64,000 nucleotides of DNA from an uncultured Methanomicrobiales archaeon (GTDB lineage Archaea > Halobacteriota > Methanomicrobia > Methanomicrobiales > Methanospirillaceae): NCBI GenBank assembly GCA_963697895.1, contig OY969100.1:352001-416000 (forward strand), given 5' to 3'. Shown here piece after piece: positions 51,494-57,888 of the stretch (position 1 is its first letter; each line of letters begins with the position of its first letter). A program made the position numbers and the translations under genes. The notes below the pieces were generated by a model. The model was not told where the DNA came from. It searched no databases and saw only the letters and a program-made list of their open reading frames with translations.

Positions 51494-51936
51494 GAACTTT
51501 TCTATTTTCATTGGATCGAATCCGTCACACAGATGGACTTTCTTGGCCGGATTAAGTAAAAAAGGAGTCTCTACCTGAACGAAGCTTGAGCGCATATTAA
51601 TTCATTTTAATGGACATCATTAACAATGATATATTTTCGATTAATTTAAGAAACAGGGATGAATCAAACGAGATCGCCAAAGTTTTCTTGTTTTCTGTTA
51701 TAATCCTCTGCGCCAATGATCTGGATTAGTCTCCTAAATTCCAAAATGTTTATTAAATATTGAGGGGAGTATTCAATTAACGCCGACAATTCCATTCGAT
51801 GGCACTGACTAAGGGGGTAACGTGCCAGCACAGATTGACTGTGATGTGGTCTTGATGTGAACAGTATATTCTGGGCGGGATGTTAGTTTACTGAATCGGA
51901 TTTCAGCATTTACAGAATGTTAAGGAGGACTAAAAA

Positions 51937-52842
51937 ATGACATATACCTGTACACCATGTCCATCGGACTATACCTACTACAAAACCAGGAATAATGGTG
52001 AAGTTGAAGCACCCATCCAGGGAAATGTGAATAACTGCTCATTCATGGCATCACTTATTGCAGTTTCGTGGGTGACTGGATTTCAATCTGCAGCCTTTTT
52101 GCCCGTTACAAGTTGGCCAAAGAAAGTTGATCTAAATTCGAGTCCTAAAAGATATCAGATCCCATTTTGGAATGCACCCGGTACTGCTGGTCTGAACAGC
52201 ACGGAATTCTGGGTATCTGAAAAATTCTGGATGGATGAAAATAAAAATTTCAAATATGGACATTCATCCGAATTAAAAGAACTATGGCCAGCGGTAATGG
52301 AAAAAGCATTTGCAAACTTCATTCAGGCTGATAAAACCAAGGACATGGACGATATGTCGCAAATTGGCTGGTCATCGTTCGATTCGCCTCCCCTGATGAC
52401 CCTCTCGGGATGGACTCCAAACACGCCTAAAACAACAGCTGGGAAGACCGGGGACACTCTCTATTCAGAGATCGGAGGGAAGACCAGTGGAAAGAAAACA
52501 ACACGTCCGATGATCGGCTGGACAAAAGCAGCTTGTCCCACGGATGCCCAGATGAAGCCGAATCATACATATGCCATTCTTGGAATCTGGTTGAGCGGGA
52601 ACATCAAATATATCGTCCTCCGCAATCCTCTCGGTAAAATGGCAGGAGGAAACACCCCTGGTGCACTTGTCGCAGGTTCCTGGGCTGGTGTGAACGATAC
52701 GTGGTATAATGAAAAGAAGCAAGCCCTGGGAGGACCAGGTCTCATCGATAAAATCTTCGATGTCACCATCGGGCTCTTTGCCCTCCCTGCAGACAAGTTC
52801 CAGGCTTACTTTACCGCGTACACCTGGGTAGGGTTACCCTAA
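51937..52842 (+). CDS. Calpain-family (peptidase C2, CysPc-like) cysteine protease
   Basis: IQGNVNNC(34)SFMASL matches QGxxGDCxxxAxL; ELWPAVMEKAFA; NH(210)TYAILG; IVLRN(230)PLG matches RNPWG; GLF.LP..KF..YF tail. Strong SD AAGGAGG. Confidence 0.82.
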   Translation: MTYTCTPCPSDYTYYKTRNNGEVEAPIQGNVNNCSFMASLIAVSWVTGFQSAAFLPVTSWPKKVDLNSSPKRYQIPFWNAPGTAGLNSTEFWVSEKFWMDENKNFKYGHSSELKELWPAVMEKAFANFIQADKTKDMDDMSQIGWSSFDSPPLMTLSGWTPNTPKTTAGKTGDTLYSEIGGKTSGKKTTRPMIGWTKAACPTDAQMKPNHTYAILGIWLSGNIKYIVLRNPLGKMAGGNTPGALVAGSWAGVNDTWYNEKKQALGGPGLIDKIFDVTIGLFALPADKFQAYFTAYTWVGLP

Positions 52843-52884
52843 AACCCAAATAATTCGAACATCGGTCAAATTAATGGTGAGATC

Positions 52885-55683
52885 ATGAATAAATCGGGGA
52901 CAAAAGCAAGCAAATCGGTTGCAATGCTTCTTTTGATAATCTTGATTACTACCATGTCTGCTTCAGGCGAATTCGTTTATCCGGTTCTGACCGGAACGAT
53001 GACCCCGGTTTCAACAACCCGAACGGATAGCGATCAGACTTTCCCAGCAATTGACAATGATCAAATCGTCTGGCAGACCATCGATTCATTCAATTTCACC
53101 TATGATATTGTCCTTTACAATATCACGAATGGACAGGAGATCATGCTGACGCCTGGCACGGACGATACGGATCAGGTGAACCCGTCTGTATCCGGAAATT
53201 TAGTCGTCTGGGAAGATGGCCGTAATGGTCGGTCGGATATATATCTATATGATCTCTACAATCGACAGCAAATGCCGATAACTGCTAGCACTCCCAATTC
53301 AAATCAGGCTCGACCAGCAATCGATGGGAGAAAAATTGTATGGCAAGATAACAGGAACGACAAATGGGACATTTATCTTGCTGATCTGGATAATTCAAGC
53401 GAGACGAGAATTACCGGCGGCTCAGAGGACAGTGAATTTCCAGACATATCCGAAACCAAGATCGTATGGCAGTCATTAGACGAACTGAACCAGACATACG
53501 ATATCAACATTTATGATAATGAGACGGGTATTACCAGTCTGTTAACCCTAAACACAACGGATTCAAATCAGATGTTCCCCCGGATATGGAAGGATTACGT
53601 CGTCTGGCAGGGGGTGGATGTTGTTAATGGGACAAATGATATATATCTATATGACCTCACAGGAAGCGAGGGAGCAATATGTATTACACCCGATACCGGC
53701 AATTCAAACCAGGAAAGACCTGCTATCGATGAAGGCCGGGTAGTCTGGGAGGATGACAGAGATGGAAACTGGAACATCTATTCTTATGAACTTTCGACCG
53801 GGACCACCTCCACCCTCCCCACTGATACCTATGATAGGACATATCCAGCTATATCCCGGGATCGTATAGTATGGCAGGATATGCATTCTGGTGTATCACA
53901 GATCTACCTGTTCACCATCGGTAATTCGGTTTCCTGTCCCCAGGCTGATTTCGATGTAAACACCTCGATTGGGTCTTTACCTATCACCGTCTATTTTTCA
54001 GATAAATCCACCGGAAACCCGACCAACTGGAACTGGGATTTCGGGGACGGAACGTCAGGAACCGGGATGAATGTTACCCATGTGTACAACAATTCGGGCA
54101 TCTACACCGTCACTCTGACTGTCAGTACTCCCTATTGCCGTAACTCGAAGAGAGTTGAAAACCTCATCACCGCCGGAGACATCCCGGGAGCACAATTTTC
54201 CGTAAACATCACCGAAGGACCTTCTCCGCTGACGGTGGGATTTATCGATGAATCTTCCGGCGAGCCGACCGGTTGGCTCTGGGAATTTGGGGACGGGACG
54301 ACATCGACCGAGCAGAACCCGGAGCACATCTATCCCCCGGGGGTATACACGGTCAGACTAACGAGCAGCAACCAATTCGGAAATGATACCATCGAAAAGG
54401 AAAATCTGATCACGGTTATTAATGGAAATCTGAATCTGATGAATTGGTCCATTCCGGGGTTGGATGTTCAGGAATTTGATGGTAGACAACATATCGTAGT
54501 TAACACAACGCAAATATCCGTTTATTCTTTTAATTATACAGAAATCAACCTTTCCTATCCACAGGGGCATAATCTCCGGTATGTCCGGTTTTATTCTGAA
54601 AATGAGACCGGATTTTTGAAAACGAACAATACAACGATCGAAGGGAATATATCCAGCGTGCACCTTGAAAGTGAAACCCTCGGTCCTGATGGAATCGTCC
54701 AGATCGGGATTAATCCACAATATTTTGATCAGAATGGCTCTCTCTCCCTGACCACGTGGGGGAATATCACCCCCCTGGATCTTGAAGCAGTAAAACAGGC
54801 ATGGTTTAATGTGACCATCGGAGATGTGACAGGTGCAGCATATACCGCCCAGTTTATTAAAAACGGGATGAATCAGACCGGCCCTGCCACCATTCGGATG
54901 GCAGTGAACTCATCATGGATTAAGGAGCAGGAACCTCTCTATGGTATGGAGATCGATTCCGATCCTCAAGGGGCGAATGTATACGTGGATGGTGTATTCA
55001 AAGGGGTAACCCCGACGGTCATTGCAGGTACTACGGCAGGCAGCTACAAAGTGGAGGTAACCAAAAACGGATTCAATGACATCTCCCGAACGGTTTCCTT
55101 GGGGGGTATCCGGATCATCAGAATAGGTGATGACGGGATCTCCGAAGTATTGCCCACCAGATATCTGTACACGGACACAAGAAAAAACCTCGACTACTTT
55201 GAGGCAGATTCACCGGGGGGGTTATCCAAATTTAGCGTAGTGGGTCTCTCCTACTCTGGAAATCCCTTCCAGCTCCTTACCCTCACTATAACCCGGTACA
55301 TCACCGGTGGCGGCGGAGGAGGAGGTGGCGGCGGAGGCGGCTCTCCATCGGGCAGCACAACCACAGCCACCCCATCACCTGCTGCCACTGAATCGTCCAC
55401 GATCTCATCGACAGAAGAGGGAATAAACCTCGAAATCACCCTCACCCCTGAACCAAGCGTACCGCAGGGGGAGCCAACAACCCTAATCCCCGAAGAACCA
55501 GCGACTCCGGTCCCGACTCCCACTACACCTCCGCCTCTGGGTCCGCTGGGTATCATACTCGGTATGTTCGGATGGCTGGAAACGATCCTGAAGGGTCGGA
55601 TGGTATTCATCCTCGCTGCAGTGGCCATCACGGTCGTAAGTGTAATTGCCATATGGAAGAAAGGGTATCTCGGACGGGAATGA
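52885..55683 (+). CDS. Cell-surface protein: signal peptide, 7-bladed beta-propeller, 2 PKD, PGF-pre-PGF-like domain with PEGA insert, Gly/Pro/Thr linker, C-terminal TM anchor
   Basis: Seven iVWqd..n.DIylYd repeats; WNWDFGDG and WLWEFGDG; IDSDPQGANVYVDG..GVTP (PEGA); G12 run; PTPTTPPP; hydrophobic helix followed by WKK. Confidence 0.9.
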   Translation: MNKSGTKASKSVAMLLLIILITTMSASGEFVYPVLTGTMTPVSTTRTDSDQTFPAIDNDQIVWQTIDSFNFTYDIVLYNITNGQEIMLTPGTDDTDQVNPSVSGNLVVWEDGRNGRSDIYLYDLYNRQQMPITASTPNSNQARPAIDGRKIVWQDNRNDKWDIYLADLDNSSETRITGGSEDSEFPDISETKIVWQSLDELNQTYDINIYDNETGITSLLTLNTTDSNQMFPRIWKDYVVWQGVDVVNGTNDIYLYDLTGSEGAICITPDTGNSNQERPAIDEGRVVWEDDRDGNWNIYSYELSTGTTSTLPTDTYDRTYPAISRDRIVWQDMHSGVSQIYLFTIGNSVSCPQADFDVNTSIGSLPITVYFSDKSTGNPTNWNWDFGDGTSGTGMNVTHVYNNSGIYTVTLTVSTPYCRNSKRVENLITAGDIPGAQFSVNITEGPSPLTVGFIDESSGEPTGWLWEFGDGTTSTEQNPEHIYPPGVYTVRLTSSNQFGNDTIEKENLITVINGNLNLMNWSIPGLDVQEFDGRQHIVVNTTQISVYSFNYTEINLSYPQGHNLRYVRFYSENETGFLKTNNTTIEGNISSVHLESETLGPDGIVQIGINPQYFDQNGSLSLTTWGNITPLDLEAVKQAWFNVTIGDVTGAAYTAQFIKNGMNQTGPATIRMAVNSSWIKEQEPLYGMEIDSDPQGANVYVDGVFKGVTPTVIAGTTAGSYKVEVTKNGFNDISRTVSLGGIRIIRIGDDGISEVLPTRYLYTDTRKNLDYFEADSPGGLSKFSVVGLSYSGNPFQLLTLTITRYITGGGGGGGGGGGGSPSGSTTTATPSPAATESSTISSTEEGINLEITLTPEPSVPQGEPTTLIPEEPATPVPTPTTPPPLGPLGIILGMFGWLETILKGRMVFILAAVAITVVSVIAIWKKGYLGRE
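55306..55341 (+). repeat. (GGN)12 poly-glycine linker
   Basis: ggtggcggcggaggaggaggtggcggcggaggcggc, in frame within the surface protein. Confidence 0.9.
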
Positions 55684-55954: not shown

Positions 55955-56914
55955 ATGGCTCCACTTCGCTTAAAACGCAGAATTCCGGATATCGAAGGAA
56001 TGAAACAGCGGAATGATATCCGCGGCCTGATCCGGCTCCTGGGCGACCGGAATTTCACCGTTCAGTGGCAGGCAGCAGCAGCGCTCGGAACAATGGGCCA
56101 GGCTCCTATTGACCAGCTGATAAAAGAACTGCATCACCCGGACCGGAATGTCCGGCTCGGGATCATCGAAGCGCTGGGAGATATCCATGCACCTGAGGCG
56201 GTTCCCGCGCTGATCGCACTCCTCGAGTCGGACCGTCGCGCAGAGATCCGCTGGGCGATCACGCTGGCTCTGGGGGACATAGGGGATCAACAGGCAGTAC
56301 CATCCCTTAGGAGAGCGCTCCGCGACCAAGATAAATATGTCAGATATGGTGCTGCCATCGCACTCGACAGACTAAACCAGGTGCCGGATTCGCCTGTTGA
56401 TAAAACGTATTACCTGATAGCGAAACACGAGTGGGAACGGCTGAAAACCGAGAAAGACATATCCGTTGATGCACTGCTCCAATCAACCCGGGAACGGGAT
56501 CCCCAGGTCAGGATTAAGGTGGTAGAGGTAATCGGAGAGTTGAAAGATCCTCTCGCCTGTTCCGCAATCGCTCCGGCGCTCCGGGATCGCGACAGCCGGG
56601 TCCTCTGGAAAGCGGTTACTTCCTTTCAACGATGTGGAGTGTCTCCGTTGTATATGCCAATGGGAGTGGCAAAGCGGCCCCGTTTTGGTAAAAATCCCTG
56701 GGTGGCCGCATTCCTTAATTTCTTCTTTGTCGGTCTCGGGTATAATTATCTTGGGATGTGGTGGGGATTTTTGCTCTTCCAGACGAACATGACTATCGTT
56801 GTCCTCGCTTCCCTGGAGATAGGGCCGCTGATTCCAATGGTTGTTTCCTATTCTGTCTCGTTGCTATTTAGTATCCATTCGTGGTTTATGGCAAGAAACA
56901 TGCAGGTAATTTAA
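55955..56914 (+). CDS. HEAT/PBS-lyase repeat protein with C-terminal TM2-like membrane domain
   Basis: Repeats of VR..A..ALG.IG..AVP.L..L.D; KNPWVAAFLNFFFVGLGYNYLG. Confidence 0.85.
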   Translation: MAPLRLKRRIPDIEGMKQRNDIRGLIRLLGDRNFTVQWQAAAALGTMGQAPIDQLIKELHHPDRNVRLGIIEALGDIHAPEAVPALIALLESDRRAEIRWAITLALGDIGDQQAVPSLRRALRDQDKYVRYGAAIALDRLNQVPDSPVDKTYYLIAKHEWERLKTEKDISVDALLQSTRERDPQVRIKVVEVIGELKDPLACSAIAPALRDRDSRVLWKAVTSFQRCGVSPLYMPMGVAKRPRFGKNPWVAAFLNFFFVGLGYNYLGMWWGFLLFQTNMTIVVLASLEIGPLIPMVVSYSVSLLFSIHSWFMARNMQVI

Positions 56915-56934
56915 GAAAAAGGAGAGGTGAGTGT

Positions 56935-57888
56935 ATGGCCTGGCTGAAATCCCGAAAAAAACCGGATATTCAGGCGATGAAGGAACGATCTGACCTTCGG
57001 GGGCTCATCAACGCGCTCAGCCATGAAGACCTGCAGGTTCAGACAGATGCTGCACAGGCACTCGGAGAGCTGGGAAATTCGGATCTTACGCAGCTGGTGC
57101 ACGCGTTCCGGCAGCGGAACAAGCATGTAAGGCTGGGTATTATCGAAGTATTTGCGGAATTAAAAGATCCCGGCACATTTGAATTGTTAATCTCGGCGTT
57201 GGGGGATCCTGATAACGAGGTGAGATGGGAAGCAGCCCTCGCTCTTGGCGAATTTGGAAACCCGGATGCTTATGAGCCCCTGAAGAAAGCACTGCGGGAT
57301 CCTGACAAATACGTTCGTTACGGCGCCGCTCTTGCTCTTGAGAAACTGGGATGGGAACCAAAAAAGGATGACCTCGATGCAGCGTATTTCTCCTTCGGGA
57401 AACAGGACTGGGATCGACTGAATGAGCTCAAGGATGCCTCCCTCATCCCCCTGACGCAGGCATCCTGCGACGGGGATGCAGGAATCCGGGCGAAGGCCGT
57501 TGAGGTTCTCGGAGACATCGGTGACCAACGGGCAATACCCTCCTTATATCAATCCCTTAAGGATGAAAATGACAGTGTGCGCTGGAATGCGGTGATTGCT
57601 GCGCCCCGATGTGGGATCGCCCTGATGCATCTTCCCCGGGGTCTCTCCAGACGCCCGCGTATTCGGAAAAACCCTCTCATAGCAGGTTTCTTAAATTTTC
57701 TTCTCCCCGGAATGGGATATCTGTATCTTGGTTTTTGGTGGGGAATTCTGGTTTTCCAGATAGACATAACCGCAACCCTGTGGTTATTTGCACGAAACGA
57801 GCAACTGACATATAGCACAGTATTGCCAATTTACGCCCTGCTTGCCATCCATGCCTGGTTTATGGCGAGGAAGATGCCCGACCTCTAA
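56935..57888 (+). CDS. HEAT/PBS-lyase repeat protein with C-terminal TM2-like domain (tandem paralog)
   Basis: Same architecture; LRDPDKYVRYGAA shared with the upstream gene; KNPLIAGFLNFLLPGMGYLYLG. ATG 56935 after GGAGAGGTGA. Confidence 0.85.
   Translation: MAWLKSRKKPDIQAMKERSDLRGLINALSHEDLQVQTDAAQALGELGNSDLTQLVHAFRQRNKHVRLGIIEVFAELKDPGTFELLISALGDPDNEVRWEAALALGEFGNPDAYEPLKKALRDPDKYVRYGAALALEKLGWEPKKDDLDAAYFSFGKQDWDRLNELKDASLIPLTQASCDGDAGIRAKAVEVLGDIGDQRAIPSLYQSLKDENDSVRWNAVIAAPRCGIALMHLPRGLSRRPRIRKNPLIAGFLNFLLPGMGYLYLGFWWGILVFQIDITATLWLFARNEQLTYSTVLPIYALLAIHAWFMARKMPDL

Follow-up and report, generated by a model that had tools for sequence, protein, structure and literature searches.

The catalytic cores of calpains (CysPc, MEROPS family C2) are known from human calpain-1, -3, -8 and -9 (e.g. 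6bdt, 1zcm and 2nqa), and leaderless homologues are encoded in bacteria such as Chloroflexota, Actinomycetota and Rhodanobacter. In two articles (Rawlings 2015, PMC4631099; Veselenyiova et al. 2022) calpains are said not to be found in archaea and origin scenarios are built on that statement, and in a 2026 paper bacteria and eukaryotes are the sole named calpain hosts. The DNA analysed in this work is a stretch of 64,000 nucleotides (the window) from an uncultured Methanomicrobiales archaeon (assembly GCA_963697895.1, contig OY969100.1, positions 352,001 to 416,000 of the forward strand). It carries a calpain-family gene (51937..52842, + strand) coding for a protein of 301 amino acids (aa) and, on the same strand, a gene (52885..55683) encoding an exported and C-terminally anchored surface protein of 932 aa. 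The comparison of related genomes has revealed that these two genes are conserved as a protease/surface-protein module in Methanomicrobiales, which is a new finding. An earlier note, made by a model from the sequence alone, had described the two open reading frames (ORFs) and their 42-nt gap exactly as they were found here, and its statement that reviews describe calpains as absent from archaea agrees with the 2015 and 2022 articles.

A cysteine protease dedicated to a surface protein is found in the LapG-LapA system of Pseudomonas, in which a giant surface adhesin is released by LapG, a periplasmic transglutaminase-like cysteine proteinase with a signal peptide. The likeness to the archaeal pair is one of logic only, a dedicated cysteine protease plus a surface protein, whereas the archaeal enzyme belongs to Peptidase_C2 and has no leader. 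Compared with the human calpains, whose cores it matches, the archaeal protease lacks the C2-like/CBSW domain, the penta-EF-hand domain and the small subunit, shows an identity of about 15% and, with 301 aa, approaches a minimal core. The bacterial homologues belong to the same subfamily (25-32% identity to 60 loci in the best tblastn segment) and, like the archaeal protease, have no detected calcium-binding domains. They differ in that no surface protein is linked to them (0/60) and in forming a tight clade, while the archaeal members are long-branched and most of them have lost an N-terminal extension. The partner can be compared with the propeller-PKD proteins of the RIVW/beta_prop_Msarc type (for the 'RIVW repeat' of archaeal surface proteins, see Adindla et al. 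2004, PMC2447325). Its N-terminal half is a standard member of this group, but its C-terminal half (aa 505-807, with a PEGA domain and the motifs SPxG[LF]SxF...GNPxQ) is strongly matched in calpain-linked copies only.

The comparison of the 301-aa protein with Pfam gave 25.1 bits for PF00648, Peptidase_C2 (cut-off 23.8, E 1.1e-5, residues 27-236). This was the sole entry at E<=1, with no EF-hand or C2-like domain, and the protein stops right behind the core, without the C2-like (CBSW) and penta-EF-hand domains of classical calpains. A six-frame scan of the genome with PF00648 gave 24.6 bits at the protease gene, with its neighbours. No NCBIfam match was obtained for the protein and a single-sequence search of PDB sequences gave 0 matches at E<=10; PDB sequences were matched by the family profile alone. 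Among 1.84 billion cluster representatives, 239 relatives were found at E<=1e-3 and 62 at E<=1e-10, and PF00648 was matched individually by 51/59 aligned relatives (best E 5.1e-25). The profile built from these 59 relatives matched human and rat calpain cores, with both subdomains at full length, at E values from 2e-22 to 8e-14, with values of 2e-22 to 1e-13 for calpain-8, -9, -5, -1, -2 and -3. The AlphaFold2 (AF2) model of the protease, obtained with a predicted local distance difference test (pLDDT) value of 90.5 and a predicted template modelling score of 0.92, shows the two-subdomain (PC1/PC2) papain-like fold of a calpain core, and the significant and top Foldseek matches were all calpain cores. 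The family is not a chance match, because its profile reaches human calpains at E=2e-22 and the two genes were found together again at all of the related archaeal loci that were examined.

The residues expected for catalysis are Q28 (oxyanion) and C34, H210 and N230 (triad), and these, together with E122-K123-A124, are invariant in the eight closest sequences. In the wider alignment Q28, C34 and H210 are kept in 22/22 archaeal rows and the third position of the triad is occupied by N in 18 of them and by D in the other 4, while the overall identity to the window protease is 25-35% in 16 of the 21 other archaeal rows and 52-94% in the six closest. Judging from this alignment, the active site of the archaeal calpain family is under selection. 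No 19-residue window with a Kyte-Doolittle mean >=1.6 was found in the protease, nor in the 19 archaeal orthologues scanned. Taking profile, alignment and predicted model together, the 301-aa protein of this archaeon is considered to be a real cysteine protease core of the calpain family (MEROPS C2), with its active-site residues intact. The order of the calpain motifs given in the earlier note, and the lack of a signal peptide and of EF-hand or C2L domains that it had reported, were thus borne out, and the profile search and the structure prediction that it had suggested both led to the calpain family.

Two sets of genomes were used to examine the neighbourhood of the protease gene. The relatives set comprised 40 genomes, eight of them with the protease, and provided seven loci with downstream DNA; the species collection, in which every bacterial and archaeal species was represented by one genome, yielded 105 confirmed loci, of which 80 were kept (19 from Methanomicrobiales, one from a metagenome-assembled genome (MAG) labelled 'Thermococci', and 60 bacterial). 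The 19 Methanomicrobiales loci belong to Methanolinea, Methanoregula, Methanoregulaceae, one Methanomicrobiaceae and unclassified MAGs. A full-length homologue of the surface protein was encoded directly downstream and on the same strand in 7/7 loci of the relatives, and a full-length orthologue was present at this position in 18/18 Methanomicrobiales loci of the species collection, the 19th lying at a contig edge; three loci are common to both sets. The spacers between the orthologous genes range from -77 to +121 nt. No surface protein was found next to the protease gene at the 'Thermococci' locus (0/1), as at the bacterial ones of the same collection. This linkage goes beyond what could be known from the window, and it answers positively the neighbourhood analysis that had been proposed for archaeal homologues.

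The surface protein begins with a predicted Sec-type signal peptide (aa ~8-32) and ends with a predicted transmembrane anchor (55582..55665, aa 900-927) and, behind it, the short basic tail KKGYLGRE; the two Kyte-Doolittle segments with a mean >=1.6 (8-32 and 900-927) are the only ones in the protein. The RIVW/beta_prop_Msarc propeller (aa ~40-350) matches TIGR04275 with 220.3 bits (cut-off 85) in seven stretches of tandem repeats of ~40 aa, and is followed by two PKD domains (aa ~350-515, Pfam). Next comes a family-specific juxtamembrane module (54397..55305, aa 505-807), defined by an AF2 model, the alignment of orthologues and genome searches, into which a PEGA domain (aa 688-739, Pfam) is inserted. 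Behind the module, a run of 12 glycines (55306..55341, aa 808-819) opens a Pro/Thr/Ser/Glu-rich stalk, which is followed by an amphipathic segment, the transmembrane helix and the basic tail, the C-terminus reading ...PPPLGPLGIILGMFGWLETILKGR before the helix and KKGYLGRE behind it. This order is common to the orthologues, with a Gly run in most of them. No PGF-CTERM sorting model was found in the surface protein (NCBIfam, E<=1), in agreement with the earlier note, and the protein does not have this signal of archaeosortase substrates in this search.

Propeller/PKD proteins are not restricted to protease-bearing genomes, since they were detected in 32/40 relatives (33/41 genomes including the window's own) with or without the protease. 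In the genomes devoid of the protease, the matches of these paralogues are limited to residues <515. Strong matches to residues 515-685 and 740-850 were obtained at protease-linked loci only, those found elsewhere being weak and partial, and in the window's own genome neither the propeller nor the C-terminal module was found to have a paralogue. As judged by strong sequence matches, the C-terminal half of the surface protein is specific to the calpain-linked copies.

The module spanning aa 505-807 was modelled by AF2 as an all-beta structure with a terminal helix (pLDDT 74.7), in which the predicted beta domain would comprise aa ~515-685 plus ~745-790, with PEGA inserted and the helix behind. 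Pfam gave no family besides PEGA for this module at E<=10, the Foldseek matches were all at TM<0.2, the Atlas search provided no usable match, and a profile search of the PDB with the C-terminal domain found as sole sequence matches the Gly linkers of artificial single-chain variable fragment (scFv) constructs. The consensus SPxG[LF]SxF, followed by GNPxQ, is nearly invariant in the orthologues and corresponds in the window to S776-P-G-G-L-S781-K-F783 (55210..55233, aa 776-783). From the alignment and the AF2 secondary structure it is placed in the turn that connects the two final beta strands of the module, and as such it may be regarded, purely as a lead, as a candidate site of processing. 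The best structural rows for the module include juxtamembrane or autoproteolytic beta-sandwiches, namely the GAIN domain of adhesion G-protein-coupled receptors, ZU5 and FIIND, all at background Z; in those domains the cleavage motif is HL|T or HF|S. The resemblance to GAIN/ZU5 is a lead and not a finding, because Foldseek, Atlas, Pfam and the PDB profile search gave the module no clear fold.

Some orthologues of the surface protein show variations. In the Methanoregula-type orthologues (L087, L088, L096, L084 and L105) the last ~250 aa include an extra conserved domain between the Gly run and the anchor, reading …TAKIYAN.QGVI.QAT.LQS.DG… and …HFCCFALF…, which is absent from the surface protein of the window. 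At L083/L013 (G009:C33) and L089 the surface gene is broken up into two or three ORFs, the protease gene beside it being intact; one in-frame TAG was reported in G009, and either decay or an assembly error is possible.

The conservation of the pair also extends to its absence. Seven Methanolinea-type loci have the gene order of the window, that is, radical SAM, CarS, phosphoribosyltransferase, purD, argF, protease, surface protein, HEAT and HEAT. At the same site, genome G017 has argF, 0.8 kb, the two HEAT genes and an LPG-synthase gene, and genome G007 has purD and argF, then 2.7 kb occupied by other ORFs, and a HEAT gene that is truncated; neither gene of the pair is present in either genome, and no remnants of the pair were detected at these empty sites (tblastn, E<=10). 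The pair is gained or lost as a unit. In the syntenic Methanolinea-type loci the five backbone genes are 56-72% identical to those of the window and the HEAT genes 34-55%, whereas the identity is 25-31% for the protease and 28-38% for the surface protein. By these identities, both genes of the pair diverge much faster than their flanks.

Within the phylum, a survey with the family profile revealed the protease gene in 13/401 sampled genomes. All of them belong to two families of a single order (11/28 and 1/3 genomes, in addition to the genome of the window), against 0/369 in the other families. A quick maximum-likelihood tree of 87 sequences, which is unrooted, grouped 58 bacterial rows and the 'Thermococci' row in one clade (SH-aLRT 100) with short branches and mixed phyla; the Methanomicrobiales rows fell outside of it, on long branches. 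When the 26 Methanomicrobiales rows were constrained to join, the likelihood was 4.95 units above that of the free tree (p-AU 0.598 in the approximately unbiased test). The constrained tree is no worse than the free one; the data are therefore consistent with a single origin of the archaeal sequences, and the Methanomicrobiales calpains may be seen as one deeply diverged clade in this unrooted tree. An N-terminal extension of ~100-180 aa (IGxRNPYAxxE...LFDP..SPLY), common with the bacterial clade, is kept by six archaeal members and is missing from proteases of the window type.

The earlier note had interpreted the pair as horizontally acquired and as AT-richer than its flanks. The G+C content of the protease gene (0.466) and of the surface-protein gene (0.484) is indeed below that of purD (0.551) and argF (0.572), but the shift is mild when compared with the whole window (0.509) and with the other neighbours of the pair (0.49-0.50), and it is too small to be an argument for import. 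A recent horizontal transfer was ruled out by the shared syntenic site in several Methanolinea-type genomes and by the deep divergence, so this part of the interpretation did not hold. The protease represents a calpain lineage with an intact active site in one archaeal order, which has diverged deeply and has been passed on vertically at a syntenic site, and rooted phylogenies of family C2 should now take in this archaeal lineage.

Several features of the window suggest a common transcript for both genes. The pair is preceded by an AT-rich intergenic region (51494..51936, + strand, 443 bp, against the 440 bp given before; G+C content 0.375), which presumably includes its own promoter. As had been noted earlier, both genes have a ribosome-binding site: a GGAGG Shine-Dalgarno sequence at 51924-51928, with the ATG of the calpain-like gene 8 nt further on, and GGTGA at 52876-52880, which leaves 4 nt to the ATG of the surface-protein gene. 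A T-rich stretch lies right behind the argF stop codon, at the start of the 443-bp region, and a T5 run lies behind the stop codon of the surface-protein gene, while the 42-nt spacer (52843..52884) has no T-run of 4 or more. With T-rich stretches after argF and after the surface gene and none in the spacer, a bicistronic unit is therefore suggested, and the pair is probably transcribed as a single bicistronic messenger from its own promoter. A scan for sigma-70 promoters and intrinsic terminators was set aside as not meaningful for an archaeon.

With regard to function, it is tentatively proposed, with less than even confidence, that the job of the protease in this two-gene Methanomicrobiales module is the processing of its dedicated surface partner. 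According to this proposal, the leaderless calpain-family protease would be produced along with the single-pass surface protein dedicated to it, probably by co-transcription, and the latter would be its substrate, undergoing maturation, release (shedding) or turnover. Both proteins could meet at the cytoplasmic face, before export of the partner, or, after some export step, outside the cell. The identity of the protease, its kept active site, the strict adjacency of the genes, their joint presence and absence and the partner-specific C-terminal half of the surface protein are in favour of processing. Other observations weigh against it. The chief objection is the predicted topology: the folded ectodomain would be beyond the reach of a cytoplasmic enzyme, because the protease is leaderless and the partner is Sec-exported with a cytoplasmic tail of ~8-15 residues, and this arrangement favours a cytoplasmic effector coupled to a receptor. 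The number of propeller/PKD paralogues, taken alone, would weaken the argument from linkage, but in genomes devoid of the protease their matches stop short of the C-terminal half. In addition, the subfamily occurs in 60 bacterial loci without the partner, and therefore the enzyme has no intrinsic need for a surface protein, and neither PADLOC nor Pfam provided a functional hint for the module. A complex prediction for residues 505-932 of the surface protein with the protease gave a score of 0.00 without controls, and it was counted neither way.

In the effector alternative, which is considered possible although rather doubtful, the surface protein would serve to detect a ligand, a virus or a neighbouring cell, and would recruit or release the calpain-like protease through its transmembrane helix and basic tail, possibly with the HEAT proteins, so that cytoplasmic targets are cut for signalling or for an abortive-infection-like defence. 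The combination of a leaderless protease with a single-pass partner bearing a conserved basic tail fits this topology, and the fast divergence of the pair (25-38% identity against 56-72% for the flanks) and its presence/absence polymorphism at one site are as expected for arms-race genes. However, the tail is very short, the protease has no known target, and a search of PADLOC-DB 2.0 matched neither the protease nor the surface protein to any defence family (0 at E<=0.01), the proteins encoded downstream giving generic HEAT-ARM matches only. The evidence from the HEAT genes points both ways. Two tandem paralogous genes (55955-56914 and 56881-57888, + strand, 34-nt overlap) follow the pair in the window, and the HEAT-repeat proteins that they encode (HEAT_2, PBS-lyase type) have hydrophobic C-termini. 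Such tandem genes lie behind the pair in 10/16 loci and HEAT-repeat membrane proteins co-occur with the protease in 8/8 positive relatives, but the tandem pair is present without the protease in G017 (at the same site) and in G035, the HEAT genes are not beside the Methanoregula-type pairs, and in G012 they lie elsewhere in the genome. The HEAT membrane proteins were thus rejected as obligatory third and fourth components, and they are treated as backbone neighbours and not as a proven part of the module.

In another alternative, the protease would be exported by a non-classical route and would act extracellularly, either on the surface protein or next to it, for instance in an ectodomain shedding like that of LapG-LapA. 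The near-invariant SPxG[LF]SxF beta-turn next to the membrane and the long flexible Gly/Pro-Thr stalk are plausible cut sites for such an enzyme. This alternative is nevertheless judged improbable, given that no leader was found in 20/20 archaeal protease sequences and no conserved export genes were found in the neighbourhood. The signal peptides of the partners are Sec-like and lack a twin arginine, and for this reason Tat hitch-hiking of the protease is unlikely and was discarded.

It is likewise improbable that the two genes are merely co-regulated and have unrelated functions, or that the calpain-fold protein is not a protein protease (but, e.g., an amidase or a transpeptidase with a small molecule or an envelope polymer as its substrate), as the bacterial members without a partner might suggest. 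Without a functional link between the two genes it would be difficult to account for their adjacency in 18/18 and 7/7 loci of at least two families despite rearranged flanks, for their joint absence at the syntenic site and for the partner-specific C-terminal half. A more far-reaching scenario, regarded as a long shot, is an archaeal 'adhesion-receptor plus calpain' module for signalling or defence, in which a fast-evolving sensor with a GAIN/ZU5-like domain cleaved at G[LF]|S would control a cytoplasmic calpain, and whose lineage would be old enough to bear on the origin of eukaryotic calpains. If true, it would be a prokaryotic counterpart of the receptor-coupled calpain signalling of eukaryotes.

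To our knowledge, almost no function has been established for prokaryotic calpains. The invariable pairing described here provides a minimal calpain with a concrete candidate substrate or partner, which is rare among them, in a two-gene system that is small and testable. No published description of an archaeal calpain was found in the full-text literature, a search that did not cover supplementary species lists, and none of a conserved protease/surface-protein module was found in the literature searched. At NCBI the name 'C2 family cysteine protease [Methanomicrobiales archaeon]' has already been given to one homologue, and the others carry a precomputed PF00648 match; thus the enzyme family is known to the databases and not to the literature searched.

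Other observations were made on individual protease loci. The 'Thermococci' locus (L035), on a 7-kb contig, encodes a long-form calpain inside the bacterial clade, near Verrucomicrobiota and Omnitrophota, and either mis-binning or a separate transfer is possible. Two other matches may represent variant or decayed copies: at G272:C1:1440812-1441879 the protease match is found in two overlapping pieces within a 589-aa open frame, and at G355:C12:84548-85363 there is an in-frame TGA within the match. Among the bacterial loci L036-L110, the branches are very short across phyla, with Bacteroidota sequences inside a Chloroflexota group and Frankia near Rhodanobacter, which suggests a recent spread. 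The N-terminal domain of the bacterial subfamily (IGxxNPYAxxE...LFDP..SPLY) is conserved and has no Pfam family. At L049 and related loci of Aggregatilineales, a divergently oriented Ser/Thr kinase-receiver-LuxR gene flanks the calpain gene, with a TIR-NACHT gene nearby.

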